DNA of 64,000 nt from Patescibacteria group bacterium (lineage in GTDB: Bacteria > Patescibacteriota > Patescibacteriia > 2-01-FULL-39-33). Numbering within the stretch: position 1 is the first letter of the stretch; every line of letters begins with the position of its first letter. Shown one piece after another: positions 43,769 through 60,226 of the stretch. Location of the stretch: contig JBAZKF010000001.1 in assembly GCA_041650895.1 (NCBI GenBank), positions 573,181-637,180 on the forward strand, in the 5' to 3' direction. A program made the position numbers and the translations under genes. A model generated the notes under the pieces. It saw nothing but the letters and a program-made list of their open reading frames with translations. It was not told the DNA's origin and did no database searches.

Positions 43769-44506
43769 TTATAGCTTAACAGCCTCAATCGCTAAGCTTT
43801 CCAAAGGCAATCCCTGGTACTGTTGCTTGCTAATATTTTTATTTTCGCCCAAAATATTAACTTCGAGCCCTGACTCTTTTATAATTGCGATATAATCATC
43901 TTTCAATAAAGCTCCACCGACGCAACCAGCAATTAGTGTTTCGTCGTTTTTTTGTTCTTCCGTTAAATTATCTAATAGCACTATGTCAGAAATATACATT
44001 CTACCGCCAGTTTTCAAAACTCTGTAAGCTTCCTTAAACACTTTTAGCTTATTGGGAGCTAAATTTATAACACAATTACTGATAATAATATCGATAGAAT
44101 TATCATCGATCGGTAAAGCTTCAATATCTCCCAACCTAAACTCCACATTTACGTAATTATATTTATCGGCACTTTCCTTGGCCTTAGTGATCATTTCTTC
44201 AGTCATATCAACGCCAATAACCTTGCCGCTATCGCCCACCCGTTTAGTCGCAAGAAAAGCATCAAAACCAGCGCCACTGCCCAAATCCAAAACAATATCA
44301 CCCTCTTTAATTTTCCCCAAAGCAATGGGGTTGCCACATCCTAACCCTAAATTAGCTTCTGGAACGGCGTCCATATCTTCATCGGAATAACCGATACTTT
44401 TTGATATGGCCTGAGCCGACTTACAACCGCAACCACACCCTGATTGGGCTGTGGCTATATTAGCGTAACTTTTCTTAACAATATCCTTAACCTTATTCTG
44501 TTCCAT
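43769..44506 (-). CDS. arsM: Arsenite S-adenosylmethionine methyltransferase (ArsM)
   Basis: [30 protein letters not shown] conserved ArsM motifs. Confidence 0.75.
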
Positions 44507-44571
44507 ATAATTATTGTTAGTTAATCAGTCATAAAATTCTATCACTATTATAAGTTAATAACAATCATTGA

Positions 44572-44672
44572 TTCCATTGCCCCGTCCTCCATATAAAAAA
44601 ACACCCCGTCCGCGTCATCCTCCGCCAATTAACGGAGGCGGATGGCCGGAATGAGGCGCTTTTCGTAAGTGA
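44572..44672. repeat. Degenerate R4-type repeat module (with insertion) at proximal end of cassette array
   Basis: ttccattgccccgtcctccatataaaaaaacacccc ... gcgcttttcgtaagtgag resembles R4 consensus. Confidence 0.45.
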
Positions 44673-44767
44673 GACCAACACCATACCCAATGCAGTTGCC
44701 CTGATACCTCAACCGCTTGGCGACGAAATCAACTCTATTTAGGGGTTAGTTTTTTTGTCTTACTAGT

Positions 44768-44989
44768 TTATGATGATGTTATTTTTATTTGTTTGATTCC
44801 TGCGCGCAAAAGAATAGATAAAACAATAATTAGGGCAATAGTGATTATGATTAAGGGAGTGATCATTAGAAATGATCCACCGGAACTGATACCAAGAATA
44901 GAAAATATAACAGCATACCCAATTACTATGATCATGAGAATGCTGGCCGAAGAAATCATTAAAATTCCTGACATTTTTGATTTTTGCAT
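44768..44989 (-). CDS. Small membrane protein (73 aa)
   Basis: ORF track. Confidence 0.35.
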   Translation of the reverse strand: MQKSKMSGILMISSASILMIIVIGYAVIFSILGISSGGSFLMITPLIIITIALIIVLSILLRAGIKQIKITSS

Positions 44990-45006
44990 AAATACAATTT
45001 ATTTGA

Positions 45007-45378
45007 TTACTTTAGGCAAGACTGGGCTTGATATAAATCTATTGCGGTAATAATACTACCCTGCTTAATTTCATTAGTTCTTGTTGCTCCTAGTTTTGCA
45101 GTGAGACAAGCCTCCATTGTTGAACTGATCGACGTCGGTATTTTTGAAGTATCAATGCCAAGTTTCTTTAATCCTGCAATCTGCTCTTGAGTAAGCAATG
45201 GATTACTGCTGGGAGTTTTGTTCACGGCGTTATCCGCCGTGATTTGAGAAGGAAATATCAATGGTTTGATATTAAGTGGGTCTGCAATCCAGAAATATAT
45301 TCCGGCCAACAATAAAATAAAGAAGATAACCCCCAAAACGGTAAAGAAAACATTAATGATTTTAAGCAGTATTTTCAT
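45007..45378 (-). CDS. Membrane-anchored/secreted hypothetical protein (123 aa)
   Basis: N-terminal TM. Confidence 0.4.
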   Translation of the reverse strand: MKILLKIINVFFTVLGVIFFILLLAGIYFWIADPLNIKPLIFPSQITADNAVNKTPSSNPLLTQEQIAGLKKLGIDTSKIPTSISSTMEACLTAKLGATRTNEIKQGSIITAIDLYQAQSCLK

Positions 45379-45401
45379 AGTATGATATTATATTCTTTAT
45401 T

Positions 45402-45436
45402 ATAACAAAAAATCTCCATTTAAGCGACTTTTTTAT
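45402..45436. repeat. T0 hairpin repeat copy 2
   Basis: aaaaatctccatttaagcgactttttt. Confidence 0.55.
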
Positions 45437-45450
45437 AATCAGTTCCATTC

Positions 45451-45492
45451 TACGAGGATTACGAGTCGATTTTGGAAAAATTGATTGGGTGG
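45451..45492. repeat. R1 repeat (degenerate copy)
   Basis: tacgaggattacgagtcgattttggaaaaattgattgggtgg. Confidence 0.6.
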
Positions 45493-45536
45493 GGTTGAGT
45501 GGTTTAATAGATGTTTCTATGTGCAATTTTAGATAC

Positions 45537-45567
45537 TTGACAAAATAATACCTACATGATATACAAT
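45537..45567 (+). promoter_or_regulatory. Cassette promoter (TTGACA-17-TATACA, extended -10 TG)
   Basis: Part of conserved promoter family preceding cassette genes. Confidence 0.5.
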
Positions 45568-45618
45568 CATAAATTGTAAAGGTTAAATTGTTCTTTAAAA
45601 AACGGAGGAAAAATTCAG

Positions 45619-46584
45619 ATGAGTCTACGCTTAAGTAAAATTTTACCAATTGGCTGTGGCCAAACATATTTGGTTAAAACTCATGATGGTCATTATCTTG
45701 AGATGGGTGATGTGTTTATGGCTCGCGAGCTAAGTTTGGGAAGCAGGCCATATGCCTACGCTGATTTTGTTGACCCATCGGACACCAACAAGCGAGTGAT
45801 GACTATCTGTACAATGGCGGGCTGTTCGATGCATTGTCGATTTTGCTCCATGCACGATAGTTTCAAGAGAAATTTATCGGCAGAGGAAATAGTTGAACAG
45901 GTTGGGTTCATGGCTGAACAGGGTATTGCGCTAGGTCGAAATCCCGACCTAAACGCAGCTAAAGAGTTTCGAGTACTGTATACCCGTATGGGTGAACCAA
46001 TGGTTAACATTAATGCCGTTATCGACTCAATCCAAAGACTCATTGAACTGTATCCGCATGTGATTATCGGCATGAGTACGTCTGGGGTTATATCTGGATT
46101 AGAAAAACTTTTAGAATGCCCCGATATCCTACCTCACATCGATATGCAAATCAGCCTACACTCAACTGATGCGGATGAACGGCGCGAATTATTCGGTCGC
46201 AATGCCATGCCACTTGAACTAATTGCTGAATATGCAAAACGGTGGCACCACATTACAGGAAAACAATTATCATTAAATGTGATCCTGTTTGAGGGATACA
46301 GTTATGACTTCAAATCAATGGTGGAAAATTTTGAGTTTGATCCCAAAAGTATTTGGTTTAGACTTTCCCCCTGGAATGTTGTTGCCGGAGCAGACTTTGA
46401 CAGCCTACTCAAGGTCCAGGATATCATTGCGAAGCAGCCACTTTCCGGTGATGTCATAGCTATGATTATCCACGATATTAAAGATCTCGGCATTGCCTTT
46501 GCTTATGCACCGGCAATCGACAAGGAGATAGAGAATCAAGTGGCTTGCGGCCAAGCACTTGAGGCCTTCAAGAATATGATTTAG
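45619..46584 (+). CDS. Radical SAM RNA methyltransferase of the RlmN/Cfr family, N-terminally short (321 aa)
   Basis: GCSMHCRFCS..FKRNLSAEEIVEQV, MGEPMVNINAV, STSGV, ISLHSTDADERRELFGRN and C-terminal ACGQ match RlmN/Cfr landmarks. Confidence 0.7.
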   Translation: MSLRLSKILPIGCGQTYLVKTHDGHYLEMGDVFMARELSLGSRPYAYADFVDPSDTNKRVMTICTMAGCSMHCRFCSMHDSFKRNLSAEEIVEQVGFMAEQGIALGRNPDLNAAKEFRVLYTRMGEPMVNINAVIDSIQRLIELYPHVIIGMSTSGVISGLEKLLECPDILPHIDMQISLHSTDADERRELFGRNAMPLELIAEYAKRWHHITGKQLSLNVILFEGYSYDFKSMVENFEFDPKSIWFRLSPWNVVAGADFDSLLKVQDIIAKQPLSGDVIAMIIHDIKDLGIAFAYAPAIDKEIENQVACGQALEAFKNMI

Positions 46585-46649
46585 CTCATTAACTACGCAC
46601 TTACCCCGCGCAATTTCTTTCGGAGCTTCCGAAGAATCGCGTGGGGTTT

Positions 46650-46790
46650 TTCTTTTTCTCAAAATCACCTTCATCCTACCTGCCTGCCAGTAGGCAGACC
46701 CACCCTAGTAGCAAACCAACATAAAAAGACCTACAATTATAGGCCCTTTTATATCGTTCCATAAAGCGGGAGAAAGTGGACGAAGTTATA
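46650..46790. repeat. R2/R3-type repeat module (divergent copy) incl. terminator
   Basis: ...aaaaagacctacaattataggccctttt atatcgttccataaagcgggagaaagtggacgaagttataac. Confidence 0.55.
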
Positions 46791-46853
46791 ACTTTTTTTA
46801 TTAAAAATGAGGCGTTTGTGGTATAATGTATGTGTTATAAATAATAAATAAAT

Positions 46854-47519
46854 ATGAATAAAAAAATAATAGCGATTGTAATTATTTTGGTTATGGTTGT
46901 TGGTGTATTGTTTTTGACTTTTCAAGATAATATAAAAGATATATTATTTAAATCAAATATATCATTGGATAATGTAAGTATTGAAATAATTCAACCTCAT
47001 GCTAACCACAAATTGTCTCCAACACAGTTGGCTAAAGCAAAAGAACTTTTTGGCAAGAATAATATTAGTGAAGATTTTAATGAAGATTTATGGATTTATA
47101 ATTTAATAGAAGGAAATAATGGTGATTATATAATTAAAGCTCTCCAGTTATATAATGGACTCACCATTTTTTCTAGTGATTTGTATTATCATTTTAGAGA
47201 AAACGGCAATATTAGGTATTTGGTTGGAGATGTAGCTCATGTCGATATAAACTCTCTTGAACCAAAAATTTCACCAGAAGAAGCTATTTTAAAAATTAAA
47301 CGTAAACATAAATTAAAGTTGAATGATTTTAATATTGAATTAGGTCTTAGGGATAGGTATATTTCTATGGGTGAAAACAAACAAGAATACCTTTTAGTTT
47401 GGAAAATTACTAGGAATAATAAGGATAATAGTATTGGATTATCTGGCATGTTTAGTGAAGCAATAGTTGATGCAGTCACTGGAGACATTCTATATTATTT
47501 TGATGGCGTGTTTAATTAA
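46854..47519 (+). CDS. Secreted/membrane-anchored hypothetical protein (221 aa), very AT-rich
   Basis: N-terminal TM/signal. Confidence 0.45.
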   Translation: MNKKIIAIVIILVMVVGVLFLTFQDNIKDILFKSNISLDNVSIEIIQPHANHKLSPTQLAKAKELFGKNNISEDFNEDLWIYNLIEGNNGDYIIKALQLYNGLTIFSSDLYYHFRENGNIRYLVGDVAHVDINSLEPKISPEEAILKIKRKHKLKLNDFNIELGLRDRYISMGENKQEYLLVWKITRNNKDNSIGLSGMFSEAIVDAVTGDILYYFDGVFN

Positions 47520-47599
47520 AAAGTTTAGATCCCGCCCAGCCTCATAAAAAAGTATCAAAAAAACACCTAATATAATAGGTGTTTTTTTATCCAGATTTT

Positions 47600-47640
47600 G
47601 CGGGGCTTACGGGGTGATTTTGGAAAAATTGATTGGGTGG
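47600..47640. repeat. R1 repeat
   Basis: gcggggcttacggggtgattttggaaaaattgattgggtgg. Confidence 0.8.
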
Positions 47641-47706
47641 AGGTGGCGGGTAGTTTACCTAATTATCTAAAATTAGACAAACATTTTGGTTGAGGATAAA
47701 TTGATA

Positions 47707-47735
47707 TTGACATAATTATGACCATATGATATAAT
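47707..47735 (+). promoter_or_regulatory. Cassette promoter TTGACA-17-TATAAT
   Basis: Consensus sigma70 elements with TG extended -10. Confidence 0.6.
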
Positions 47736-47809
47736 TATATATTATCAAATGGTATAATTCAGCCATGGGATTAATCGTGGAAACGGCACTTAACATAAAG
47801 GAGACAAAA

Positions 47810-48184
47810 ATGAGGATTGGAATGTTTAATAAAAATAGCAATGGCTGTACACCATTGCTTCACCATCTTGCTTCTACTCTTGACATCAAAATTCAGTATG
47901 TAGATAAACTCTCTTATCTGACCGGCGAGGACTGTGAATTCAAACTTGATGTTTTGTTGGTGCACCCCAATCTGAGCCCGATTATGTGGGCTGCTCTGCG
48001 AGAATGTGTGCAAAAAAATCCGCACATCAAATTCGTAATTTTACTGGACTCCGAAAGCGTTAGTTGCTTTAATGCTAGCGGACTATCCGGCACCGCCAAT
48101 ATTGAAACGATCCATTGGACCAATGAGAGAGAGTTTCAAAAAATTATCCAACTCATGGAGAATGCGAGGCACTCTGCGGATTGA
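47810..48184 (+). CDS. Hypothetical protein (124 aa; RBS-supported start, track ORF 47765)
   Basis: aaggaga RBS then ATG MRIGMFNK. Confidence 0.45.
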   Translation: MRIGMFNKNSNGCTPLLHHLASTLDIKIQYVDKLSYLTGEDCEFKLDVLLVHPNLSPIMWAALRECVQKNPHIKFVILLDSESVSCFNASGLSGTANIETIHWTNEREFQKIIQLMENARHSAD

Positions 48185-48212
48185 GATTATTCTATTACAT
48201 TTTAGTTCATTA

Positions 48213-48247
48213 CGCCGGGAACAAGGAAGTTCTCGGCATTTTCATTT
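48213..48247 (+). terminator. Cassette terminator (gccgggaac-aagg-aagttctcggc + T-run)
   Basis: Hairpin family shared by several cassettes. Confidence 0.6.
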
Positions 48248-48362
48248 TCCTAAAATCCACTCCATCCCATCCGCCCTAGCCACAAATCAACAAAAAAAGA
48301 CCTACAAAAATAAGCCTTTTTAATCGTCTTATTATGCGAAGAGTAATAGACGATGTTAGAAC
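48241..48362. repeat. R2+R3 repeat module
   Basis: ttttcctaaaatccactcc..ccgccctagccacaaatcaacaaaaaaagacctacaaaaataagcc..cgtcttattatgcgaagagtaatagacgatgttagaacc. Confidence 0.8.
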
Positions 48363-48420
48363 CTATATTAGGCTTCACGATGGTGGTTTTGATATGCCAA
48401 TAATAAGATTGATATTAAGC

Positions 48421-48449
48421 TTGACAACATAATATTTATATGATATGTA
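48421..48449 (+). promoter_or_regulatory. Cassette promoter TTGACA-17-TATGTA
   Basis: Conserved tatgatat extended -10 region. Confidence 0.5.
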
Positions 48450-48502
48450 TAGTGTATTGAACATTAACAGAAAACAATAGGCAACTCAAAGGAGATACTA
48501 TT

Positions 48503-48901
48503 ATGGCAACACAAGAGTATATGTTAGTAACTTATTGGTGTTGGGATCATTTTCATAATGAATATTCAACAATTGCTATTGAAATGGATAGTGAAACAGA
48601 TGAGAGTATTGAATCTGTTTTTGACTCTAATGCACCACATTACCTAAAAAACTATCTTATTGGGATATTAAAGAGTATATTTGATACCCGAGAACGCAGC
48701 TCAAATATTTCAATGGGAAAAGGTAAAATGATTCGTCTTTTCAAAATTGTTGGTTCTAATGGATGTCCATTTGGTATTTCTCCGATTCCAAATCATGATT
48801 GCAAGGAATGGAAAATAGGCTTTACTTTGAAGCCAATATGCGACTTTGATAGGGATGGAAATCCAATTCCCCTAGGCTCTTTATATGAATTAAAGCGATA
48901 A
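48503..48901 (+). CDS. Hypothetical protein (132 aa), AT-rich
   Basis: RBS aaggaga. Confidence 0.45.
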   Translation: MATQEYMLVTYWCWDHFHNEYSTIAIEMDSETDESIESVFDSNAPHYLKNYLIGILKSIFDTRERSSNISMGKGKMIRLFKIVGSNGCPFGISPIPNHDCKEWKIGFTLKPICDFDRDGNPIPLGSLYELKR

Positions 48902-48970
48902 GTAAATAAAAAACTTCCACCTCGGACCGTCATCCTTGGGATGGGAGTTTTCTTTTTTTATTCTAATTTT

Positions 48971-49011
48971 GCGGGGCTTACGGGGTGATTTTGGAAAAAT
49001 CGATTGGGTGG
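48971..49011. repeat. R1 repeat
   Basis: gcggggcttacggggtgattttggaaaaatcgattgggtgg. Confidence 0.8.
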
Positions 49012-49232
49012 ATATTTCAGTAAAATTTAGTCAAAATTGTCTAAATTTAGGTAATTTAACATAATTATTTAATTTTAAATAAGACATAGATGAATAAAAT
49101 ACTTTACAAAAATGTATTTTTTGCTATAATACATTGTTAATTCCTAATGGAATTTTCAGTCGATCCGGACTGGTATAATACTAAAGGATAAAAATTGATC
49201 ATTAAAAAACAACAAAAAGGAGAGACAGCACC

Positions 49233-50315
49233 ATGAATAAGAGCTTGAGTTACGCCGTTAGGGCGACGGATCGTTGCAATCTGAATTGCCGTTATTGCTA
49301 TGCCAAGACCGAGAAACCACAGGATATGTCATTGGCGACATTAGTCAGAATTCTTGAGCAAATGGCTGATTATAATGCGGGGGAAACAGTAATTAGTTGG
49401 ACTGGTGGCGAACCATTGTTGATGGGTCGCGCTTTCTTTGAGCTCGTCTTGGCAACACAACGCCGACTCGGCAAAAAGTTTACTAATATTCTCCAAACCA
49501 ACGCCATCCTACTGGATAAAAATTGGATTGAGTTTCTGTTGGCTAATAACTTTCAGGTACGCACTAGCCTGGACTTTCCGCCCGAGTTGCATGATGAAAT
49601 GCGACAAGCCGGCAACTTTTCCGCTACTTTAGAAAAAATCAAATTAATGGTTGCCACCGGTTTGCCGGTTAACGTCAATACGGTCATCACCAATCGCAAT
49701 ATCGACAAGGTCGAAGAGATTTACGCTTTCCTTAAACAATTGGCGATTAGCAGTTTTTCTGTTTCTCGCATGGTGCTACAAGGCAATGCGTTGATCAATC
49801 ACGATCTGGCGATCCGCGAGAACAGTGAATTCGGATTATTCCTAGTCAAGCTCTTTGACTTGTGGATCAATGACCGAAACGAACCGCGGATTGCCCGGAT
49901 TACTCCGCTCGACAAACTACTCAATGCTTGCCAAAGCTATCTGCGGCATGACGACAAGGATCCTTGCTTCCATTGCCAAGATCAGCTTCTGGCCATCGGG
50001 CCGGGCGGGGAAGTTTATCCTTCCTGCAATAAATTCTTCGGCGTGCCAGAATCCTGCCTGGGCAATATTACTGACCGCAACTTAGCGGAAGTGCTAAAGT
50101 CTCCGGAACGAGGTAAGTTTCTCAGCGAAGTCAGCGCAGTAACCGAGCGACTCTGCAGCGAATGCGAATTCATGCCGATCTGCGAAGGCGGTTGTTTCTA
50201 TATCGCCTATAATATTCGCCACGAAGCCGAGCAAATTACCGGCCGCGAGCAATTCTGCAAAGGTTATTATCTTATCTTAGCCCGAATCATGGATTACCTG
50301 AGGGAGGGCAAATGA
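49233..50315 (+). CDS. Radical SAM/SPASM domain enzyme (360 aa)
   Basis: CNLNCRYC cluster; C-terminal CSECEFMPICEGGC. Confidence 0.7.
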   Translation: MNKSLSYAVRATDRCNLNCRYCYAKTEKPQDMSLATLVRILEQMADYNAGETVISWTGGEPLLMGRAFFELVLATQRRLGKKFTNILQTNAILLDKNWIEFLLANNFQVRTSLDFPPELHDEMRQAGNFSATLEKIKLMVATGLPVNVNTVITNRNIDKVEEIYAFLKQLAISSFSVSRMVLQGNALINHDLAIRENSEFGLFLVKLFDLWINDRNEPRIARITPLDKLLNACQSYLRHDDKDPCFHCQDQLLAIGPGGEVYPSCNKFFGVPESCLGNITDRNLAEVLKSPERGKFLSEVSAVTERLCSECEFMPICEGGCFYIAYNIRHEAEQITGREQFCKGYYLILARIMDYLREGK

Positions 50316-51313
50316 TGATCCAGATACCGACACTACACCAACTCAAATTCGCTGTCGGTTATGATTGTAATCGACGTTGCGGCTTTTGCCTGCAACAGAA
50401 TAGTGACCACCAGCCGATTCTTGACTTTGCCATCGTCGAGAAGATTTTTCAAGAGGAAATGGTGGCGCGAGATGTTAATCTTGTTACCTTAACTGGCGGT
50501 GAGCCGACCTTCGGCCGTTATTTACCCTTGACTCTACGCATCATCAGTCATATATCTCAGCTTGGCAAGCAATCTTGCATTTTCACTAACGGTGATTTTC
50601 TTGATGAGAATGCGCTCAGTGTCTTCCGCCAGGCTGGTGCAACGCGTTTTCGAGTCAGTTTGTATGACCCGATTGATTGGGATAGTACCGGTCGATTGAT
50701 TAAGACTCTTAAGTCTTTCGGTTATCCGGCGATGTTCAAATATACGGTAACCAAAGAGAGTTATGATAATTTACTACAAATCTTGATACGTTTTGGCGAG
50801 TCGGAAATCGAATGGTTCCAAATCAAGCCTTATAACAGGACTGAAATCCCAGCTCAAGACAAGCTTTATGAGATGTCACCTTATCAGGTTCTATCCATGG
50901 CTCGAATGCTGCTAGACTTTCGCAAACAATACCCGCGTATTAAAGTTGATCTACTACCTCTATGTTACGAATTTTTAGTTGATGAAACTCTGGATATTGG
51001 CGATCTCAGTCTGTGTCATTGTGGCAAGGGTTCACGCGGCTATCTGGTAATTGGCCCGACTGGCGACATACGCATCTGCGGCGCTTATCCCGATCCGATC
51101 GGTAATGCCCAAACCGATTCGATTACTGAGCTATGGCAGAATCACCCTTTGCTACAGCAAGTACGCGGTTTGGCGAGCCGTCCCAAACCCCAGGAATGCG
51201 CGGGGTGCGCGCACTGGAAAAAATGCGCGGCTACTGATTGTCATAGTGCAACTTTCGCTAGATACGGTAATTTCGCACATGGCAACCCGCAATGTCCGCT
51301 ACTGGCTCAATAA
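50312..51313 (+). CDS. Radical SAM/SPASM-like enzyme (333 aa), start overlaps previous stop (ATGATGA)
   Basis: CNRRCGFC cluster; C-terminal Cys motifs CAGCAHWKKC. Confidence 0.65.
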   Translation: MMIQIPTLHQLKFAVGYDCNRRCGFCLQQNSDHQPILDFAIVEKIFQEEMVARDVNLVTLTGGEPTFGRYLPLTLRIISHISQLGKQSCIFTNGDFLDENALSVFRQAGATRFRVSLYDPIDWDSTGRLIKTLKSFGYPAMFKYTVTKESYDNLLQILIRFGESEIEWFQIKPYNRTEIPAQDKLYEMSPYQVLSMARMLLDFRKQYPRIKVDLLPLCYEFLVDETLDIGDLSLCHCGKGSRGYLVIGPTGDIRICGAYPDPIGNAQTDSITELWQNHPLLQQVRGLASRPKPQECAGCAHWKKCAATDCHSATFARYGNFAHGNPQCPLLAQ

Positions 51314-51330
51314 TCTGCTCATTACTACAC

Positions 51331-51365
51331 GCCGAGAACAAGGAAGTTCTCGGCGTTTTCTTTTT
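51331..51365 (+). terminator. Cassette terminator (gccgagaac-aagg-aagttctcggc perfect hairpin + T-run)
   Basis: Perfect 9-bp stem. Confidence 0.65.
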
Positions 51366-51380
51366 GTAAAAATCTGCAAT

Positions 51381-51467
51381 CGATTCCATCGTCCCGTTCT
51401 TAGTATAAAAAACACCCCAATTATGGGGCGTTTTTCGTAGGCGGGCTCGAGTGGGACTGATTATAAC
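51381..51467. repeat. R4 repeat + tRNA-Asp-3-prime-like segment
   Basis: ttccatcgtcccgttcttagtataaaaaacaccccaattatggggcgtttttcgtaggcgg gctcgagtgggactgattataac. Confidence 0.75.
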
Positions 51468-51553
51468 TTATTTTAAGGAGCATAAAGGGGTTTATTATGT
51501 ACCGAATTTAGCTAAAATTAGATGAAATTGAGAATATGTGGATAAATCGCTAT

Positions 51554-51581
51554 TGACAAAATAATTGCTATATGCTATAAT
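51554..51581 (+). promoter_or_regulatory. Cassette promoter TTGACA-16-TATAAT
   Basis: Consensus elements. Confidence 0.55.
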
Positions 51582-51699
51582 TGAATATTAAAACTGATTC
51601 CTATTTTTGCGAGATAATAACTCAGAAAACATCGATTTTCTTGGCTGTAGTGTCTCAAAAATCACGAAACTAAAAACTTAGGCAAAAAAGGAGTTTACC

Positions 51700-52179
51700 A
51701 TGAATCAGTCCGCACTTTCCCAATATGAACAAGGTTCCGCTGAACGAGTTATCGCTCATGCCGCTTGGAAACATTCGCGGGGTCGCCAACCCTCGATGAC
51801 TTTCATACTGGAGCACAATCCCCGCAAAGCTCTGGCGCTCGCAAAGTCTGTTATCCGTTGCAATCAACAAACCAAGCTGCTCGATCGAATCGGGGCAAAG
51901 ATTGTCGAGTCCAAAACATACGACAACATGACCGACGCCGAGATCAAAATCGCAGTAAGAAGTATCATCTCCTCATCATCATCTGAAGAAGAAGTGAAAC
52001 AGAGGGTCCGCGATGAACTCGGCTGTCCCTACGGTATCTGTCTTAGCACCGATGTTCCTACCGACGTAGTCGGGAGAGAAGCAAGAGAACTGGTGCGTGG
52101 CCTCGGTGGTCTTGTAATGAAGAACGGCGCCATGGCGATGGCTACGATACACGGCCATAATGGAGTCATTTTGATTTGA
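51700..52179 (+). CDS. Hypothetical protein (159 aa)
   Basis: RBS aaggag. Confidence 0.45.
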   Translation: MNQSALSQYEQGSAERVIAHAAWKHSRGRQPSMTFILEHNPRKALALAKSVIRCNQQTKLLDRIGAKIVESKTYDNMTDAEIKIAVRSIISSSSSEEEVKQRVRDELGCPYGICLSTDVPTDVVGREARELVRGLGGLVMKNGAMAMATIHGHNGVILI

Positions 52180-52212
52180 CCACCAAATAACGAAGCACAT
52201 TCCCCCGCACGA

Positions 52213-52257
52213 TTTTGGGAAGCCCCAAACATTGTGCGGGGCTTTTCATTTTGTTAA
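52213..52257 (+). terminator. Cassette terminator (ccccgcac...gtgcgggg hairpin type 2)
   Basis: Same hairpin at 54027-54065. Confidence 0.6.
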
Positions 52258-52294
52258 AATTTCACTAAGTTATAATGTCCCATTACCCCTATCA

Positions 52295-52355
52295 AAAAAC
52301 ACCCCGATTATGGGGCGTTTTTCGTAGGCGGAGGGTAATAAACGATGTTAGAACC
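52295..52355. repeat. Partial R4 + R3 module
   Basis: aacaccccgattatggggcgtttttcgtaggcggagggtaataaacgatgttagaacc. Confidence 0.7.
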
Positions 52356-52404
52356 CGTCTTAAGGAAAACGACAAATTTAGTTTACCCAGTTCGGCAATT
52401 ATAA

Positions 52405-53178
52405 CTAGAATGATTTAGATAAAAAAATTGGAAACTCAAATTTAAGACGATAGCCATTCTTTGTCACTGAAGCAGCCTTCCTGTCCTTAGATAAAATGGT
52501 TTGCATTCGCTTTATATCGCTATTATCTAGCTTATATCTATCAATATGGTCCTTATCTGAAAGCAACATTTGTTTTCCTCTACCTATTAATTGTGGAGCC
52601 GTAAAACCGGCTCTTTTATAAATATCAACCATATCTAATGATTGAAAAAAACGGTTGCCAATTTTATTAGATGAATTATAGGCGAGACTTAAAGTGTCGC
52701 GGTCATCTAAGTTAGGAATGTAGGCTGGCTGATTTACAAAGAGTCCATCTTTTTTTAGATGCTTTTTAATAATTTTAAGAACCTTTATTTGCAATTTTTT
52801 AGAAGGAAAATAATCAAGGGAACTCCTCATTATTACAAGGTCGAATTTTTTGTGAAGATTCATTTTAAGCAAATCAACGCACACCTTAGTTGTTTTGGGA
52901 TTTTTGTTTTCGCTCAAGTGTTTTGACGAAGCGTCAACAATAGTTAATCGTCCTCGTCCTAAGCTATTTATAAGTTTCTCTCCCAAAAGTCCGGAAGCCG
53001 AAGCAACATATAAGATATCTAAATTCCTCTTTGGTAAATAAGGTTTTACTGCTTTAATAAAGAGCTTGAAATTTTGTTCATCAGAAAAATAACCGCCATA
53101 GGTTAATAGCCAATCTTTTCCCAGAACATTTTTATCTTTATCTAAATTATACTTAACTATTTTGGAAGGAGTGGTCAC
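52405..53178 (-). CDS. Probable class I SAM-dependent methyltransferase (257 aa), inverted orientation in array
   Basis: LDILYVASASGLLGEKL motif I-like; DLVIMRSSLDYF. Confidence 0.45.
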   Translation of the reverse strand: MTTPSKIVKYNLDKDKNVLGKDWLLTYGGYFSDEQNFKLFIKAVKPYLPKRNLDILYVASASGLLGEKLINSLGRGRLTIVDASSKHLSENKNPKTTKVCVDLLKMNLHKKFDLVIMRSSLDYFPSKKLQIKVLKIIKKHLKKDGLFVNQPAYIPNLDDRDTLSLAYNSSNKIGNRFFQSLDMVDIYKRAGFTAPQLIGRGKQMLLSDKDHIDRYKLDNSDIKRMQTILSKDRKAASVTKNGYRLKFEFPIFLSKSF

Positions 53179-53244
53179 AAGATTAAAAAAATAATTATTT
53201 ATTTACTAAATTTTATCATTTTTGGGCACCAAAAACAATCAAAA

Positions 53245-53343
53245 GTTCTATCGTCCCGTTCTTAGTACAAAAAACACCCCGATTATGGGGCGTTTTTCGT
53301 AGGCGGGGCTTACGGGGTGATTTTGGAAAAATTGATTGGGTGG
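53245..53343. repeat. R4 + R1 composite repeat
   Basis: ctatcgtcccgttcttagtacaaaaaacaccccgattatggggcgtttttcgtaggcggggcttacggggtgattttggaaaaattgattgggtgg. Confidence 0.8.
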
Positions 53344-53445
53344 ATTTTTCATCAAAATTTAGTCAAAACTGTTTAAATTTAGGTAATTTATGATAATTAT
53401 TTAGCTAATTTTAGAGAAAATACAGTGAATATGTGGATAAAATAC

Positions 53446-53474
53446 TTGACAAAATTTAATTCATATGATAAAAT
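53446..53474 (+). promoter_or_regulatory. Cassette promoter TTGACA-17-TAAAAT
   Basis: Conserved. Confidence 0.55.
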
Positions 53475-53541
53475 AATATAATGACAATTTTATCAGAGGG
53501 TAATTTAGTACAATAACAACAACCAACAGGAGACAAAAGAC

Positions 53542-53844
53542 ATGGGAGACTCGGTGAACATTCACGGGTTGGACAAGGCTGCGGTTTTGGCGGCGTTATA
53601 TAACGCTTCGAGGCCGCAAGGGCTTGGCATTTTACAATTCGATGCGAAGCCAATGACGCGCGATGAGGCGGCCAAAATCCTCGAGCAGCAAACCCACTTC
53701 GACTATCTCAAAGGCCGGGTCATGAAAATCGACCTGTCCAAGGACGAAGTTGGTATTTGGGGTTACGACCGTGACAACGGTGCCGGTGCCGCCGCAAAGG
53801 CGATTGAAGCGCTGCATATCAGTGGCAACGCCAACAATGAATGA
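53542..53844 (+). CDS. Hypothetical protein (100 aa), GC-rich
   Basis: RBS caggaga. Confidence 0.45.
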   Translation: MGDSVNIHGLDKAAVLAALYNASRPQGLGILQFDAKPMTRDEAAKILEQQTHFDYLKGRVMKIDLSKDEVGIWGYDRDNGAGAAAKAIEALHISGNANNE

Positions 53845-54019
53845 TACCATCCAAGCCACTCACGCACAAGGCGCGCACGATGCCGCGAAGGCTGCCCGTG
53901 AGATGATGGGACAGGAAACGGCCTTCCGTCAGGAAAACGGGATAGCCGTCATGAATCTTGGCCTCGCCGATATGTGCGATGTTCTCGATCCAGCTATCGA
54001 CCGCGGCCTCAAGCAGTAG
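53839..54019 (+). CDS. Small hypothetical protein (59 aa), translationally coupled (ATGA overlap) to previous ORF
   Basis: MNDTIQATHAQGAHDAAKAAREMMGQ...; track ORF 53750..54019 trimmed to coupled ATG. Confidence 0.35.
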
Positions 54020-54026
54020 CACAACG

Positions 54027-54071
54027 CCCCGCACGATTTTGGGAAGCCCCAAACATTGTGCGGGGCTTTTC
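54027..54071 (+). terminator. Cassette terminator (hairpin type 2)
   Basis: ccccgcacgattttgggaagccccaaacattgtgcgggg + T-run. Confidence 0.6.
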
Positions 54072-54191
54072 ATTTTCCTAAAATCCACTCCGTCCCGTCC
54101 GCCCTACCCATTAAATCAACAAAAAAAGACCTACAAAAATAAGCTTTTTTAATCGTCTTATTATGCGAAGAGTAATAGACGATGTTAGAAC
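54071..54191. repeat. R2+R3 module
   Basis: Near-identical to 48241-48362. Confidence 0.8.
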
Positions 54192-54249
54192 TTATCTAAG
54201 TGGATGCAAGAAGTGTTTTGAAATAACTAGAATCAACCAGAATTGATGC

Positions 54250-54278
54250 TTGACAAAATTATTCTTATATGATACAAT
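54250..54278 (+). promoter_or_regulatory. Cassette promoter TTGACA-17-TACAAT
   Basis: Conserved. Confidence 0.55.
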
Positions 54279-54348
54279 CATATGTTAATAGTTCATTAGC
54301 TTGATAGGATTATTATTACCCAAACAAACACAAAGGAGGTCACTAATA

Positions 54349-54687
54349 ATGACGACTCAAAACTATCTCCAAATCGCAAGGGACAATGAAGCGATATTCA
54401 GAAATGTGCTGAGAGACCTAAGGGATAATAGAACAATCAGACCTATGGGACTCTATGTTCCTGAAGACCTGGAAACGGAAGCGGAGCTTGAAAAGATTTT
54501 TGAAGAATACTCTTCTGGAAATAGATACGGAATATTCACGATTACCGATTTCACGGTCGGCGAAGGGTTTGCAACTATTGCGTTTCAAGACATTGCTTGC
54601 TTATCCGGAGGCGGGGCAAGATTAAAGTATTCTGTCAGTGACGACGACGTGCAATACCTTGAGCCAGAATTCACAATGATGAGTTAA
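54349..54687 (+). CDS. Hypothetical protein (112 aa; RBS-supported start)
   Basis: aaggagg RBS then ATG MTTQNYLQ. Confidence 0.45.
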   Translation: MTTQNYLQIARDNEAIFRNVLRDLRDNRTIRPMGLYVPEDLETEAELEKIFEEYSSGNRYGIFTITDFTVGEGFATIAFQDIACLSGGGARLKYSVSDDDVQYLEPEFTMMS

Positions 54688-54756
54688 ATACCGCCAGCCA
54701 CAAACAAAGTACAACTACGCAATTAACGCCGAGGACAAGGAAATCCCCGGCGTTTT

Positions 54757-54892
54757 CTTTTTTCCTAAAATCCCCTCCGTCCCGTCCGCCCTAGCCATAA
54801 ATCAACAAAAAAAGACCTACAAAAGTAGGCCTTTTTATATCGTTCCATAAAGCGGGGCTTACGGGGCGATTTTGGAAAAATCGATTGGGTGG
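54757..54892. repeat. R2 + R1 composite repeat
   Basis: ttttcctaaaatcccctccgtcccgtccgccctagccataaatcaac...tatatcgttccataaagcggggcttacggggcgattttggaaaaatcgattgggtgg. Confidence 0.8.
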
Positions 54893-54969
54893 GATTAGTA
54901 TTATATTTGCCAAATTATCTAAATTTAAACAATTATTTAGGTTAATTCATTAATTTTGTTAAACATCAA

Positions 54970-54998
54970 TTGACAAATTACCAAACTTGTATTAAGAT
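54970..54998 (+). promoter_or_regulatory. Cassette promoter TTGACA-17-TAAGAT
   Basis: Conserved. Confidence 0.5.
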
Positions 54999-55077
54999 AC
55001 TCTATTGTACTCCTCATTTATTTCAAGTGGGGGTAAATAGTACAATGCACATTAACAGGAAAAAAGGAGAAGACTTC

Positions 55078-56421
55078 ATGAACCTAACTATAATCGTAAC
55101 ACTGGGCGCTATTGGATTAGTGGTACTAATCGGATTGGCATCCGCACTGTTATTTCGACATGTGGTGAGCACCAATATGGTGCACATTGTACAAAGTCGA
55201 GCAAAAACAACTCCATATGGCACTGGGCAAAAATCCGGTAACGTCTACTACAAATGGCCATCTTGGATTCCAATTTTAGGCGTGACAGTAATTGAATTGC
55301 CGGTAAGCAACTTTGATTTGTCGCTGAACGGCTATGAAGCCTATGATAAAGACAGGGTACCCTTTATGATTGATGTTACTGCCTTCTTTCGCATCAATAA
55401 TACGGCTGAAGCCGCTCAACGCGTCGCCAGTATTCAAGAGATGCGTGAACAATTGGAACTCATTGTAAAGGGTGCTGTAAGAAAAGTCTTGGCATCAGAC
55501 GTTATTGATGCTATTATGGTAGAACGCTCAAAATTTGGAGACCAGTTCACCCATGAAGTTAAAGATCAGCTGATCCAATGGGGCGTCGAATCTGTCAAAG
55601 CTATGGAATTGATGGATATTCGCGACACCAAGGGGTTCGAGGTTATTGCCAATATAATGGCGAAAAAGACATCTTTTATCGCCATGGAAAGCCGCTTAGA
55701 GGTGGCAAGCAATCATCGGAAAGCTGAGAATGCGGAAATTGAGGCGGAACAAGCCATCAGCGTTCGCCAACAAGAATCCCAACAGGTGGTTGGTGAACGG
55801 ACTGCTCAAAAAGATAAGTTGGTGGGAATCGCCCAACAACAGGCACAACAAGAAGTTCTCGAACAAGAAAAAGAAACCCGCGAACGACAAATGGCTGTGC
55901 AACGGGTTCAGCAGGTTCGCGCGGCGGAAATCAGTAAGGACGAAAAAGTCGTTGCTGCTGAGCAAGACAAGGCTACTCGCGTCATTATGGCCGATGGCTC
56001 TCTGTTAGCCCAAATTAAGGAAGCTGAGGGTATCGAAAAACTCGGTGAAGCCAGAGCCGCAGCCGAAAAAGCGATGCAATTGGCACCGGTTCAAGCCAAT
56101 ATTACGTTGGCGAAAGAAATCGGACAAAATGCTGGCTATCAACAATACCTGGCGATGATTGAAGCCATCAAGGCATACATTACTGTTGGAGGTGAACAAG
56201 CAAAGGCTCTGCAAAAAGCTGATGTTAAGGTAATTGCCAATGCTGGACAGCCGACAGAAGGCGTCAAAAATGTCATGGATATGTTCACTTCCAAAGGTGG
56301 AACGAACATGGCGGCAATGATTGAAGCACTCGCTCAGACGCCAATGGGTGCCAAACTTTTGGCAACATTCATCGGCAATAATAGCGATAATGCCGAGGCT
56401 ACTATCGATACTGAGGCATAA
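55078..56421 (+). CDS. SPFH/band-7 (flotillin-like) protein with N-terminal TM and Ala/Glu/Gln-rich coiled coil
   Basis: TM then SPFH-like region, long EAQ-rich coiled coil; start at RBS-supported MNLTII (track 54970). Confidence 0.6.
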   Translation: MNLTIIVTLGAIGLVVLIGLASALLFRHVVSTNMVHIVQSRAKTTPYGTGQKSGNVYYKWPSWIPILGVTVIELPVSNFDLSLNGYEAYDKDRVPFMIDVTAFFRINNTAEAAQRVASIQEMREQLELIVKGAVRKVLASDVIDAIMVERSKFGDQFTHEVKDQLIQWGVESVKAMELMDIRDTKGFEVIANIMAKKTSFIAMESRLEVASNHRKAENAEIEAEQAISVRQQESQQVVGERTAQKDKLVGIAQQQAQQEVLEQEKETRERQMAVQRVQQVRAAEISKDEKVVAAEQDKATRVIMADGSLLAQIKEAEGIEKLGEARAAAEKAMQLAPVQANITLAKEIGQNAGYQQYLAMIEAIKAYITVGGEQAKALQKADVKVIANAGQPTEGVKNVMDMFTSKGGTNMAAMIEALAQTPMGAKLLATFIGNNSDNAEATIDTEA

Positions 56422-56442
56422 GTATAATTTTTTTTCAACAAC

Positions 56443-56472
56443 GCTGAAGACATTCGTCTTCAGCTTTTTTAT
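56443..56472 (+). terminator. Cassette terminator (gctgaagac-attc-gtcttcagc + T-run)
   Basis: Perfect 9-bp stem. Confidence 0.65.
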
Positions 56473-56590
56473 TTTTCTAAAATCATCGTTACCCCATCCG
56501 CCCTAGCCACGAATCAACAAAAAAAGACCTACAAAAATAGGCCTTTTTATATCGTTCCATCTAGCGGAGAGTAATAGACGATGTTAGAAC
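56465..56590. repeat. R2+R3 module
   Basis: ...ccgccctagccacgaatcaacaaaaaaagacctacaaaaataggcctttttatatcgttccatctagcggagagtaatagacgatgttagaac. Confidence 0.8.
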
Positions 56591-56638
56591 TTATATAGGT
56601 GGATGCGAGAGGAATTATGAGATACCAAGAATATGAGC

Positions 56639-56667
56639 TTGACAAAATTAACTGTAATTGCTAAGGT
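56639..56667 (+). promoter_or_regulatory. Cassette promoter TTGACA-17-TAAGGT
   Basis: Weaker -10. Confidence 0.4.
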
Positions 56668-56708
56668 CTAATATCGAACATTCGACTACAACCAAGGGGA
56701 GATACATA

Positions 56709-57089
56709 ATGACTAAACGAGAATACATACCAAAAGCAAGTGTAAAGAAAAGTGATATAAAAAGAGAAATTTTAGTGGCAATGATTGATTGCGCAGAAAA
56801 TATACGTGGTTATTATGAAGCTGCTGCTGGTTTAATATTTGAGGATGGTTATATACCTCCAGAAGAATTTAGACCCGGGGTAGCTGACAGATTTTTGTTT
56901 TCAAAAATTATTGACGATGATTGGGAAAGAGTGTTAGATATCTACTGTTGCGCACCACTACACCCCAGAATGATTGGGTTTGGACTAATGATAGAAAAAT
57001 ACTATCCCCAGTATGGCACTTTCAGAAAAATGAGCGAGGAAGAAAAAAGAGAGAGAATGAAGCTTAAAAAAACTTGTAGACGAGGATGA
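56709..57089 (+). CDS. Hypothetical protein (126 aa; RBS-supported start), AT-rich
   Basis: aagggga RBS then ATG MTKREY. Confidence 0.45.
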   Translation: MTKREYIPKASVKKSDIKREILVAMIDCAENIRGYYEAAAGLIFEDGYIPPEEFRPGVADRFLFSKIIDDDWERVLDIYCCAPLHPRMIGFGLMIEKYYPQYGTFRKMSEEEKRERMKLKKTCRRG

Positions 57090-57141
57090 AATCAGCCAAT
57101 AAAAAACTCCCAAATTGGGAGTTTATTTTTATTTGGAAAAT

Positions 57142-57182
57142 GCGGGGCTTACGGGGTGATTTTGGAAAAATTGATTGGTTGG
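57142..57182. repeat. R1 repeat
   Basis: gcggggcttacggggtgattttggaaaaattgattggttgg. Confidence 0.8.
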
Positions 57183-57249
57183 AATTAATATCTGGTTTAC
57201 CTAGTTATCTAAAATTAGATAAATACTTAATCTATTAATAATCCTAGTA

Positions 57250-57278
57250 TTGACAAAAAAATACTACTATGATATACT
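57250..57278 (+). promoter_or_regulatory. Cassette promoter TTGACA-17-TATACT
   Basis: Conserved. Confidence 0.55.
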
Positions 57279-57372
57279 AATTTGATATTCCATTATTGGA
57301 ATCTCATCCCAGTCCGGGATGGCAGTCGCCAAAAGGACAAAGAACCTTACAGTTAGAAAGGAAAAACCGACC

Positions 57373-58065
57373 ATGGATGACATGCTTGGTGATGCTCTGA
57401 AGACCATCTTCGGACCATTGAAAAACCTCATGGAGCAATTACAGGGAAACAAACGTGAACTGTGGTTGCAAGTATTACAGCAATTATCGAGAATGAAACC
57501 GGAAACGGTTTTACTTAAACTCAGCCGACCACTTTCTCCTCCCCTTTGGATTAAAATCGAGGTTGGCGGACTTAAACTCAAACCGTTGCAAATTATTGAA
57601 AAATTTACTGCGGCAGGAGTCGGTCCAAACCATAAATTCCCATTGATGTTTAGTTTGATTGAGTATCAGCGAGGAATCAACGCTGAAACTAAAGATGTTG
57701 AGTTCGTTAAGGGCAATCTTTATGAACTATTTGGAATCACAAAAGAGAAGATTTCCGTCGACTATTTTCTAAACAATGAATTTCTGGCGCAATATGGACT
57801 AGAGCTATGTGAACCTGCCGATGCAATCTCTATTCGTCTCGCTTGGAAAGATCAAAGAAAGGGCGAAAGGGCTTTTGTGGGGACAAAGCCTTACTACTAT
57901 ACAAGAAAAGAACAGCCAGATGGATACCTCTACCCAACAGTTCCTTCGCTGATGGGAGCGGCTGGAAAGGTATGGTTTGGAGAGGATTGGGCCACGGCCG
58001 ACATGGGACCTTGTAGTTACACTCGTAATGTTTGGATATTCAGACGTAAGTGCATCCAATCGTAA
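57373..58065 (+). CDS. Hypothetical protein (230 aa; track ORF starts 57319)
   Basis: RBS-like aaggaaaaa before ATG 57373. Confidence 0.4.
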   Translation: MDDMLGDALKTIFGPLKNLMEQLQGNKRELWLQVLQQLSRMKPETVLLKLSRPLSPPLWIKIEVGGLKLKPLQIIEKFTAAGVGPNHKFPLMFSLIEYQRGINAETKDVEFVKGNLYELFGITKEKISVDYFLNNEFLAQYGLELCEPADAISIRLAWKDQRKGERAFVGTKPYYYTRKEQPDGYLYPTVPSLMGAAGKVWFGEDWATADMGPCSYTRNVWIFRRKCIQS

Positions 58066-58085
58066 GCACATTCGATAAATTTCAA

Positions 58086-58117
58086 CACCGAGGACAAGAA
58101 AGTTCTCGGTGTTTTCA
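58086..58117 (+). terminator. Cassette terminator (caccgagga-caagaaa-gttctcggtg)
   Basis: Same hairpin at 61685-61710. Confidence 0.6.
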
Positions 58118-58236
58118 TTTTCCTAAAATCCACTCCGTCCCGTCCGCCCTAACCACAAATCAACTAAAAAAGACCTACAAAAGTAGGCCTTTTTATATCG
58201 TTTCATCTAGCGGGAGAAAGTGGACGAAGTTATAAC
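58112..58236. repeat. R2 + R3-variant module
   Basis: ...ccgccctaaccacaaatcaactaaaaaagacctacaaaagtaggcctttttatatcgtttcatctagcgggagaaagtggacgaagttataacc. Confidence 0.8.
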
Positions 58237-58300
58237 CTTTTTTAATACATACGAAGGTTATTATTACATACCAAACTTAAGTTCAATAAAATAACTACTT

Positions 58301-58957: not shown

Positions 58958-58994
58958 AGTTTTTAATTGTTTTCATTTATACGTTTAGTATACT

Positions 58995-59024
58995 AAAAAA
59001 TCGCCATTTAGGCGACTTTTTATA
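58995..59024. repeat. T0 hairpin repeat copy 3
   Basis: aaaaatcgccatttaggcgacttttt then ataatctgttccgtttgcggac (degenerate junction motif). Confidence 0.55.
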
Positions 59025-59135
59025 ATCTGTTCCGTTTGCGGACTGGTGAGGTCAAGTACCAAAATATAGAGGTCTTTCAAAGCTTTTTTGGACTATTTAT
59101 TTTAGAAAATTTGAGGTGTTAGGGTCATGATATAT

Positions 59136-60125: not shown

Positions 60126-60185
60126 AGCTCGATCTTTTTATGCACATTTGAAGTGCTCGGGTCGCTCGATAAAACGAGCTTAGTG

Positions 60186-60226
60186 GCGGGGCTTACGGGG
60201 CAATTTTGGAAAAATTGATTGGATGG
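60186..60226. repeat. R1 repeat
   Basis: gcggggcttacggggcaattttggaaaaattgattggatgg. Confidence 0.75.

Follow-up and report, generated by a model that had tools for sequence, protein, structure and literature searches.

We have analysed a gene at positions 45619 to 46584 (plus strand) of a 64,000-nucleotide stretch of DNA (the window), which is part of a Patescibacteria contig of 957,791 bp. Sequence, profile and structure matches identify its product as a 321-residue radical S-adenosylmethionine (SAM) protein of the RlmN/Cfr superfamily that lacks the N-terminal domain (NTD), and this protein is identical to the NCBI entry 'hypothetical protein WC473_03110' from a metagenome-assembled genome (MAG) of a Patescibacteria group bacterium. 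On balance, we consider that this is an intact accessory gene for a 'mini' class A-like radical SAM enzyme, which would use the methyl-cysteine chemistry of RlmN on a substrate other than A2503. As parts of this reading, which we favour by a modest measure, the protein family and hundreds of phage relatives would form a supergroup separate from the RlmN/Cfr group, the family would be rare, horizontally transferred and linked to phages or mobile elements, and the gene is predicted to be a self-contained, separately transcribed expression unit.

The first-pass annotation had placed the protein in the RlmN/Cfr superfamily of class A radical SAM methylases, and profile, PDB and Foldseek matches bear this out. 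The TIGR00048 RlmN profile matched with E=1.6e-21, and E. coli RlmN chains in the PDB were found at about 1e-11 in a sequence search. An AlphaFold2 model made from 66 family sequences had a predicted local distance difference test score (pLDDT) of 95.2 and a predicted template modelling score (pTM) of 0.92, and Foldseek comparison of this model with 6fz6, RlmN and Cfr gave E values from 2.8e-17 to 1.5e-9. The kinship to RlmN/Cfr is far above chance. The landmarks that had been listed (cluster, FxRNLxxxEIxxQV, MGEP, STSG, ISLH...R.E and ACGQ) are all present in the 321-residue open reading frame (ORF), as the cluster motif C69-x3-C73-x2-C76-S77, the motif FKRNLSAEEIVEQV (F82KRNLSAEEIVEQV95), M124GEP127, S153TSG156, I178SLH181...R188.E190 and A309-C310-G311-Q312. 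The codons of C69-x3-C73-x2-C76, the radical SAM [4Fe-4S] motif, lie at 45823..45846 (plus strand), and those of A309-C310-G311-Q312, a loop that corresponds to the one with the methyl-carrying Cys355 in E. coli RlmN (C338 in Cfr), at 46543..46554 (plus strand); both motifs are invariant in the family.

The absence of the N-terminal accessory domain, also proposed at first pass, was confirmed in four ways. The TIGR00048 match begins at profile position 84 of 355, which corresponds to residue 17; about 70 N-terminal residues are missing in alignments with RlmN/Cfr; and the predicted model opens directly with beta strands (4-10, 14-20 and 26-34) where a helical domain would stand. The start codon is the first one possible behind an in-frame stop, which makes an N-terminal extension of the ORF impossible. 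In comparison with RlmN, the family also carries two specific insertions, at residues ~37-55 and ~258-276.

On the one hand, the catalytic core has been kept. All 56 family-invariant residues are present in the window protein, including the cluster ligands and C310. In a 75-sequence alignment, the family shows no variation at E28, F75, S153, S179, H181 or the GEP motif, and their aligned counterparts are conserved in RlmN and Cfr; by analogy with work on Cfr (PMC2836569), these conserved core residues are assigned a role in SAM binding. The family has N-terminal features of its own as well: C13 (codon at 45655..45657, plus strand) belongs to a near-invariant, family-specific C-G-Q-T-Y motif in which C13, G14, Q15 and Y17 are each kept in at least 90% of family sequences. 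This conservation bears on the idea that a phage gene has left only a remnant here, inactive or in decay and without a present function. The mosaic accessory region and the rarity of the family would fit a remnant, but the ORF has its full length, none of the 56 invariant residues has been lost, the predicted model is very confident, and the promoter-like site, ribosome-binding site (RBS) and terminator are intact, so that we consider decay very improbable.

On the other hand, the substrate side is entirely different from that of RlmN and Cfr. The position of E. coli C118, seven residues before the cluster motif (-7), is an invariant threonine (T62), and the conserved cysteine sits at -5 instead, as C64. 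This near-invariant residue (codon at 45808..45810, plus strand) is a candidate substitute for the resolving cysteine. A297-P298-A299-I300 stands in place of the RNA-contacting R344-K345-T346-R347 of RlmN (R327-S328-Q329-F330 in Cfr), T122 in place of RlmN M176 and S250 in place of I309. When the residues within 5 Å of A2503 in a 2025 Cfr structure paper (PMC12458371) were mapped onto the 75-sequence alignment, RlmN I109, E111, R114, T116, T171, N172 and V174 corresponded to M34, R36, K58, V60, F117, R118 and L120, and only the change from R114 to K58 was conservative. The divergent residues T62, A297-I300, T122 and S250 are themselves invariant across the family. The protein is also acidic, with a pI of 5.3 and 30 Lys and Arg against 42 Asp and Glu, whereas the pI is 9.0-9.6 in canonical relatives from the same search and 8.5 for E. 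coli RlmN without its NTD. Going by these residues, A2503 of 23S rRNA, bound as RlmN and Cfr bind it, is an improbable substrate.

The comparison with characterised proteins is consistent with this. E. coli RlmN (PDB 3RF9, 4PL1, 5HR6/5HR7; TIGR00048; K06941) shares the radical SAM core fold (Foldseek E 4e-15, template modelling (TM) score ~0.68), the CxxxCxxC motif, equivalents of E105, F131, S211, S233 and H235, and the C-terminal A-C-G-Q loop. Unlike RlmN, the window protein has no helical NTD of about 70 residues, has Thr for C118, A-P-A-I for R-K-T-R and an acidic pI, and its structure-based identity to RlmN is just 17-19%. The best structural match was 6FZ6, a radical SAM methyltransferase of Sphaerobacter thermophilus (E 2.8e-17, TM 0.73, 21% identity), which differs in being a full-length RlmN-type protein of 366 residues annotated as probable RlmN. 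Membership in the curated RlmN families was not reached: the window protein scored 76.7 bits on TIGR00048 (cut-off 290) and 56.4 bits on NF008396 (cut-off 633). By these measures, the window protein is not an RlmN.

The same holds for Cfr, and the first-pass suggestion of a candidate resistance or ribosome-modification determinant is not supported. Cfr of S. aureus (PDB 9P0P; TIGR04432, NF000424) belongs to the same superfamily and has the same catalytic cysteine loop, with C338 aligned to C310 (Foldseek E 1.5e-9), but the window protein lacks the NTD, a conserved cysteine at the C105 position and every signature residue, including Q329. It scored 50.3 bits on TIGR04432, 50.1 on NF000424 and 49.2 on NF011024, and thus missed all Cfr cut-offs (550, 530 and 468 bits) widely. 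Of the seven Cfr-signature residues Y97, W101, S103, S151, S153, Q329 and F330 (listed in PMC12458371), none is identical in the window protein, which has R36, K58, V60, R118, L120, A299 and I300. With regard to mobility, plasmid- or transposon-borne close relatives are absent from the family, and no close relative was found among 72,556 plasmids. As far as these comparisons go, the window protein is not a Cfr, nor is its gene a resistance determinant of the Cfr type; we see no sign of antibiotic resistance. A Cfr-like ribosome-protecting enzyme making m8A2503 would draw on the shared superfamily, on horizontal mobility and on the precedent of mobile cfr genes, and on nothing more. Against scores of 50 bits where 530-550 are needed, the lack of all signature residues, a tree in which the family is not sister to Cfr, the plasmid result, an uncultured Patescibacteria host and relatives that are phages, we regard it as extremely unlikely.

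The phylogeny points in the same direction. Of the top 149 representatives of the search, 114 have no NTD. A neighbour-joining tree of 136 sequences and 271 columns contained two supergroups. The first holds all proteins with a cysteine at -7, and canonical NTD-bearing RlmN/Cfr are nested in it among many NTD-less proteins; the second, without the -7 cysteine, unites the family of the window protein with the split phage cores and a CGQ group that is also NTD-less. In 100 bootstrap replicates with 50 taxa, this family was monophyletic in 98, the two supergroups were separate in 91, and the family was sister to RlmN/Cfr in none. In answer to the check proposed at first pass, the window protein clusters neither within housekeeping RlmN nor with Cfr. 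The first-pass annotation had named clustering within housekeeping RlmN together with conserved synteny as what would overturn its view of a mobile homologue. The family lies outside RlmN in the bootstrapped tree, and no synteny was conserved across all family loci. A mobile Cfr-like resistance gene is likewise at odds with a position outside the RlmN/Cfr group and with the absence of close relatives from the plasmids.

The distribution of the family is sparse and patchy. In a scan of the Genome Taxonomy Database (GTDB) with one genome for each of 185,579 species, the family was present in six species, namely a Patescibacteria single-amplified genome, a Bacilli MAG, a Myxococcales MAG, two Peregrinibacteria and one Altimarinota. 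Identity to the window protein does not follow taxonomy: it is 54-56% for the Bacilli and Myxococcales copies and 46-47% for the other copies from the Candidate Phyla Radiation (CPR). Another copy lies on a chromosome with SpoIIGA and sigma-E-type neighbours. The family is small and compact, with 72 clusters at 90% identity; when 1.84 billion representatives were searched with a profile, only 23 proteins reached E<=1e-30, just two of them full-length 50%-identity representatives. Together with phage-like contigs and the mosaic array in which the window gene lies, this patchy distribution supports the horizontal or mobile origin proposed at first pass. A conserved housekeeping RlmN of the whole CPR was also considered and was dropped in view of the six species, the phage-like contexts and the 23 representatives.

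A related possibility is that the gene is the working RlmN of this organism, a streamlined enzyme that makes m2A2503 in 23S rRNA and/or m2A37 in tRNA and replaces the canonical gene that most CPR bacteria lack. K06941 rlmN has been detected in 93.3% of non-CPR genomes and in only 30.9% of CPR genomes (PMC12641178, supplement), so such a replacement is conceivable. The catalytic core and the methyl-carrying cysteine are kept, several family members carry the label RlmN from the JGI pipeline, and no further RlmN-like ORF was found in the 64-kb window. However, the family occurs in just four CPR genomes among the GTDB species, and it is also found in Bacilli, in Myxococcales and on the spore-former-like chromosome, lineages in which canonical RlmN is nearly always present. 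Given the frequency in non-CPR genomes, the Bacilli and Myxococcales copies are almost certainly extra paralogues. Furthermore, members lie on phage-like contigs, the window protein, with its pI of 5.3, has lost the NTD, C118 and the R-K-T-R contact alike, and the locus is a mosaic accessory array that is not beside translation genes. We consider an RlmN surrogate unlikely for these reasons, and return to an accessory enzyme with another substrate as the preferred reading.

With regard to public annotation, the JGI pipeline names NTD-less family members (P0022, P0028, P0033, P0046, P0048 and others) '23S rRNA (adenine2503-C2)-methyltransferase' or 'RlmN'. Such automatic labels on NTD-less members could inflate rlmN counts in CPR and metagenome surveys and prompt false calls of Cfr-like resistance.

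The link to phages is seen in both close and distant relatives. Two homologues (54-55% identity) are located on phage-like contigs of 168 kb and 135 kb with small co-directional ORFs, many HNH and homing endonucleases, endonuclease VII, tRNA nucleotidyltransferase, guanylate kinase and integrase-like genes, and a further close homologue lies beside MazG, helicase and NrdD/NrdG. Relatives at about 31% identity number 234 in IMG/VR, mostly in crAss-like gut phages, and occur in 38 GenBank phage records. These include Moorella phage MTATph1, Kehishuvirus 'tikkala' and Pectobacterium phages Arno18 and Wc4, as well as Vibrio, Salmonella, Aeromonas, Xanthomonas and Stenotrophomonas phages. The only PHROG match of the window protein was 24834 (E=3.5e-14), to which no function is assigned there; a PADLOC search with the protein gave no match, and structural matches in BFVD included a 'COG0820' protein from an uncultured Caudovirales phage and one from Pseudomonas phage 201phi2-1. 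A literature search found no papers on phage or NTD-less RlmN-like enzymes.

By similarity, by the lack of the NTD and of the -7 cysteine, and by the YTRMGEP and LSPxN motifs, the window protein belongs to the group of phage NTD-less RlmN-like proteins (PHROG 24834 and relatives). Examples of this group, all uncharacterised, are A0A6J5RTK8 (the Caudovirales 'COG0820' protein), B3FJU2 (phage 201phi2-1), Moorella phage MTATph1 CDS0097+0096, Kehishuvirus tikkala WEU69814+WEU69813 and Pectobacterium phage Arno18 orf59. Like the window protein, to which they have about 31% identity, they have no NTD, no cysteine at the C118 position and the motifs Y-T-R-M-G-E-P and S-P-(W/I)-N, and they fall in the same supergroup of the tree. 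Unlike it, they are often split; the window protein is a fused form, with the core and the ACGQ loop in one ORF, and has the two extra near-invariant cysteines C13 and C64.

The split forms were studied in 77 fetched phage cores. In 39 of them, a core ORF of about 260 residues stops before the last strand and is followed, 10-59 nt downstream, by a mini-ORF of 39-44 residues with the consensus M.EIK.QLE.MGYDYAVAIATKSEIENGAACGQL.II.E, which encodes the final strand and the AACGQ catalytic cysteine. Such mini-ORFs are found, among the loci of relatives (numbered with the prefix L), at L010 10789-10909, L088 8838-8960 (Moorella phage MTATph1 CDS0096) and L096 6759-6890, and also in L008, L043, L017 and L072. 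The other 38 cores are of a crAss-like lineage (L025 type) with no mini-ORF nearby; downstream of the core, these loci have a second radical-SAM-like gene of 255 residues and a small class I methyltransferase-like gene. The phage cores have a conserved cysteine at neither -7 nor -5, and many phage relatives have no second conserved cysteine at all.

In these phage genomes we also found a wrong public annotation. The 'prohibitin family protein' of Xanthomonas phage JGB6 (WEU67363.1, L101 3896-4960) is an NTD-less RlmN-like radical SAM protein (VICCSTQSGCPIGCRFC...), and the 'prohibitin family protein' of Stenotrophomonas phage BUCTxx99 is misannotated in the same way. A functional tie to SPFH/Band7 proteins, for which an SPFH gene in the array of the window and another next to the gene in Kehishuvirus might have spoken, was dropped, since SPFH genes were near the gene in 2 of ~100 loci; the JGB6 'prohibitin', itself RlmN-like, was dropped as support for it.

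Gene neighbourhoods of relatives provide a hint of function. A B12-binding radical SAM protein (TIGR04190-like) and a protein that we call X recur together in six loci as operon partners of the fused form of the family, at L005 9044-12550, L090 5661-9664, L091 4317-12092, L099 2220-4480, L106 2653-6658 and L107 4200-6432. Protein X has about 250-360 residues and is fused to a further domain of about 550 residues in Bacilli-type loci. Neither the B12-binding protein nor X nor the ATP-grasp ligase of this operon matched a curated family, and the partner proteins X and Y had no NCBIfam or PDB sequence match; from motifs we have the unverified impression that X may be a Rossmann methyltransferase and Y SelO-like. 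The ATP-grasp ligase is found in three relatives' loci, PnuC and a NadR-like protein in two and a Macro-domain protein in one. In L098 (1-16981), a homologue lies inside a co-directional NAD and nucleotide cluster with NAD synthase (NadE), phosphoribosyl pyrophosphate (PRPP) synthetase, genes like nicotinamide mononucleotide (NMN) adenylyltransferase, PnuC, a NadR-like protein, Nudix/NrtR, NAD kinase, two nucleoside deoxyribosyltransferase-like genes and two more radical SAM proteins (HemN-like and viperin/MoaA-like). ThyA/DHFR or NrdD/NrdG is near the homologue in other loci. We infer from these neighbourhoods, with their nucleotide and NAD metabolism, phage replication modules and B12-binding radical SAM operon, that the substrate is most likely nucleotide-type or otherwise non-ribosomal and used in phage-host biology.

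In the chemistry that we propose, a first SAM would methylate C310, and a second SAM would be reductively cleaved to give a 5'-deoxyadenosyl radical. This radical would take a hydrogen from methyl-Cys310, and the resulting methylene radical would add to an sp2 (amidine-type) carbon of the substrate. A second thiol would then resolve the covalent adduct, for which C64, two residues past the canonical position, or C13 are candidates. To our knowledge, a methyl-cysteine radical mechanism has been characterised only for RlmN and Cfr, whose target is in both cases one RNA adenine.

A bolder form of this proposal, which we put forward as a tentative possibility, is that the window enzyme and its phage relatives represent a new, non-ribosomal class of methyl-cysteine radical SAM enzymes. 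During phage-host conflict, their target would be a nucleotide-type substrate (for instance an adenine nucleotide, NAD/ADP-ribose or a nucleic acid) or a protein, which they would C-methylate or to which they would become linked through a methylene group. In about half of the fetched split copies the reactive cysteine is on a separate peptide of 39-44 residues, and there is no conserved resolving cysteine, so that the peptide might end covalently attached to the target.

The recurrent operon can also be read in another way, with the window protein as a modifying enzyme of a pathway for ribosomally synthesised and post-translationally modified peptides (RiPP-like) or of protein modification, which would methylate an sp2 carbon (e.g. 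of an imidazole type) of a small protein. In several genomes the gene shares its operon with a B12-binding protein of the radical SAM methylase type, with an ATP-grasp ligase and with small ORFs; the window contains, 2.6 kb downstream of the gene, two radical SAM/SPASM maturase-like genes that are preceded by small ORFs and carry the same upstream element; and the acidic surface and lost RNA contacts fit a substrate that is not a nucleic acid. No precursor peptide family was identified, however, the partners are not in all loci and are absent beside the window gene, and we know of no class A radical SAM enzyme that acts on peptides. A peptide or protein pathway therefore seems quite doubtful to us, and less so a nucleotide-type or other non-ribosomal substrate.

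Several points weigh against our preferred reading of an accessory enzyme that does not act on A2503. None of the recurrent partner genes is present beside the window gene, and therefore the functional hint from the relatives' loci transfers weakly to it. RNA is the substrate of all the nearest characterised relatives, and tRNA gene clusters are found in many phages of the wider family, so that an RNA substrate is possible. The neighbour-joining tree had no outgroup. Finally, both the substrate and the methyl-transfer chemistry of the family members are predictions.

At the locus itself, the gene has its own expression signals. A shared upstream element, seen by repeat search and alignment of seven upstream regions, lies at 45426..45492 (plus strand), with its 25-nt core GATTTTGGAAAAATTGATTGGGTGG at 45468-45492. 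A promoter-like site at 45537..45567 (plus strand; sequence and repeat family D5) consists of TTGACA (45537-45542), a 17-nt spacer and TATACA/TACAAT; its -10 was assigned by eye, and a simple promoter scanner did not list the site. A Shine-Dalgarno-like GGAGGA (45604..45609, plus strand) stands 9 nt before the ATG. Downstream, an intrinsic-terminator-like structure at 46603..46660 (plus strand), predicted by folding, is made of a hairpin (46603-46647) and a U-rich run; the hairpin has -25.9 kcal/mol (z=-4.87), and 0 of 200 shuffles folded as well.

These signals recur in the surrounding region. The whole element of about 45 nt, GCGGGGCTTACGGGG[TC]GATTTTGGAAAAAT[TC]GATTGGGTGG, has seven same-strand copies at 45426-60226 of the window, with cores at 45468, 47616, 48987, 53319, 54868, 57158 and 60202, all on the plus strand; for the 25-nt core, 0 matches are expected in shuffles. 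A TTGACA promoter-like site follows each copy at a distance of about 65 nt and a plus-strand gene at about 130-150 nt, and most copies are followed by a palindrome resembling TTATCTAAAATTAGATAA. Repeat family D5, which includes the promoter-like site, precedes several array units, conserved terminator modules lie between units, and the G+C content at third codon positions (GC3) of adjacent genes swings from 0.19 to 0.64. From these features, the 45-60-kb region looks like a co-regulated, compositionally mosaic array, not an integron. The only other JGI metagenome contig with the element (L104) carries a homologue of the next gene (46854-47519) with the element on both sides and no RlmN-like gene.

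The first-pass description of an isolated unit in a horizontally assembled array thus stands in large part, given the gene's own promoter-like site, RBS and terminator, the seven repeated elements and the GC3 jumps. The term 'cassette-borne', in its integron sense, does not: no attC-like sites or IntI were seen in the window (IntI judged from the best 25 of 49 Pfam families), and the repeats are promoter-proximal elements and terminators. An integron cassette array was dropped for this reason. The only recombinase seen was a serine recombinase 38 kb from the window gene, and an island flanked by tRNA-Asp with att repeats was rejected because no repeat of the tRNA 3' end was found.

Other features of the window are given here for completeness. 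Its left part consists of ordinary chromosomal genes (GroEL, ribosomal protein L19, pseudouridine synthase, CCA-adding enzyme and tRNAs). At about 44500-45600, genes change from mostly minus strand on the left to plus strand on the right, and near 45 kb the cumulative GC skew is at its minimum, as might be seen at an origin or a terminus of replication. The window shows no enrichment of DnaA-box matches, with 23 where 18 are expected; two boxes that match perfectly (51537 and 53432) are just upstream of -35 sites of array units. The tandem radical SAM/SPASM maturase-like genes are at 49233-50315 and 50312-51313, with small ORFs at 47765-48184 and 48503-48901 before them, and 47765-51313 may represent a cluster for peptide maturation inside this array. 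At 5780-7456, a gene for a large serine recombinase sits on the border of a stretch with markedly lower G+C (0.28-0.37, compared with 0.40-0.49 around it), and 5780-17500 may be an integrated element. A tRNA-Ile with the anticodon TAT (UAU) is predicted at 28842-28915; this tRNA is uncommon in bacteria, where AUA is usually read by a lysidine-modified CAU tRNA.

In summary, the family of this Patescibacteria gene would be part of a large, unstudied and mostly phage-encoded sister group that has shed three features of RlmN and Cfr: the domain that binds RNA, the canonical resolving cysteine and the residues in contact with RNA. If it is true that this phage-wide family modifies something other than rRNA or tRNA, the finding would be of high interest, and identification of the substrate might bring to light a new modification of nucleotides, nucleic acids or proteins in phage-host biology.

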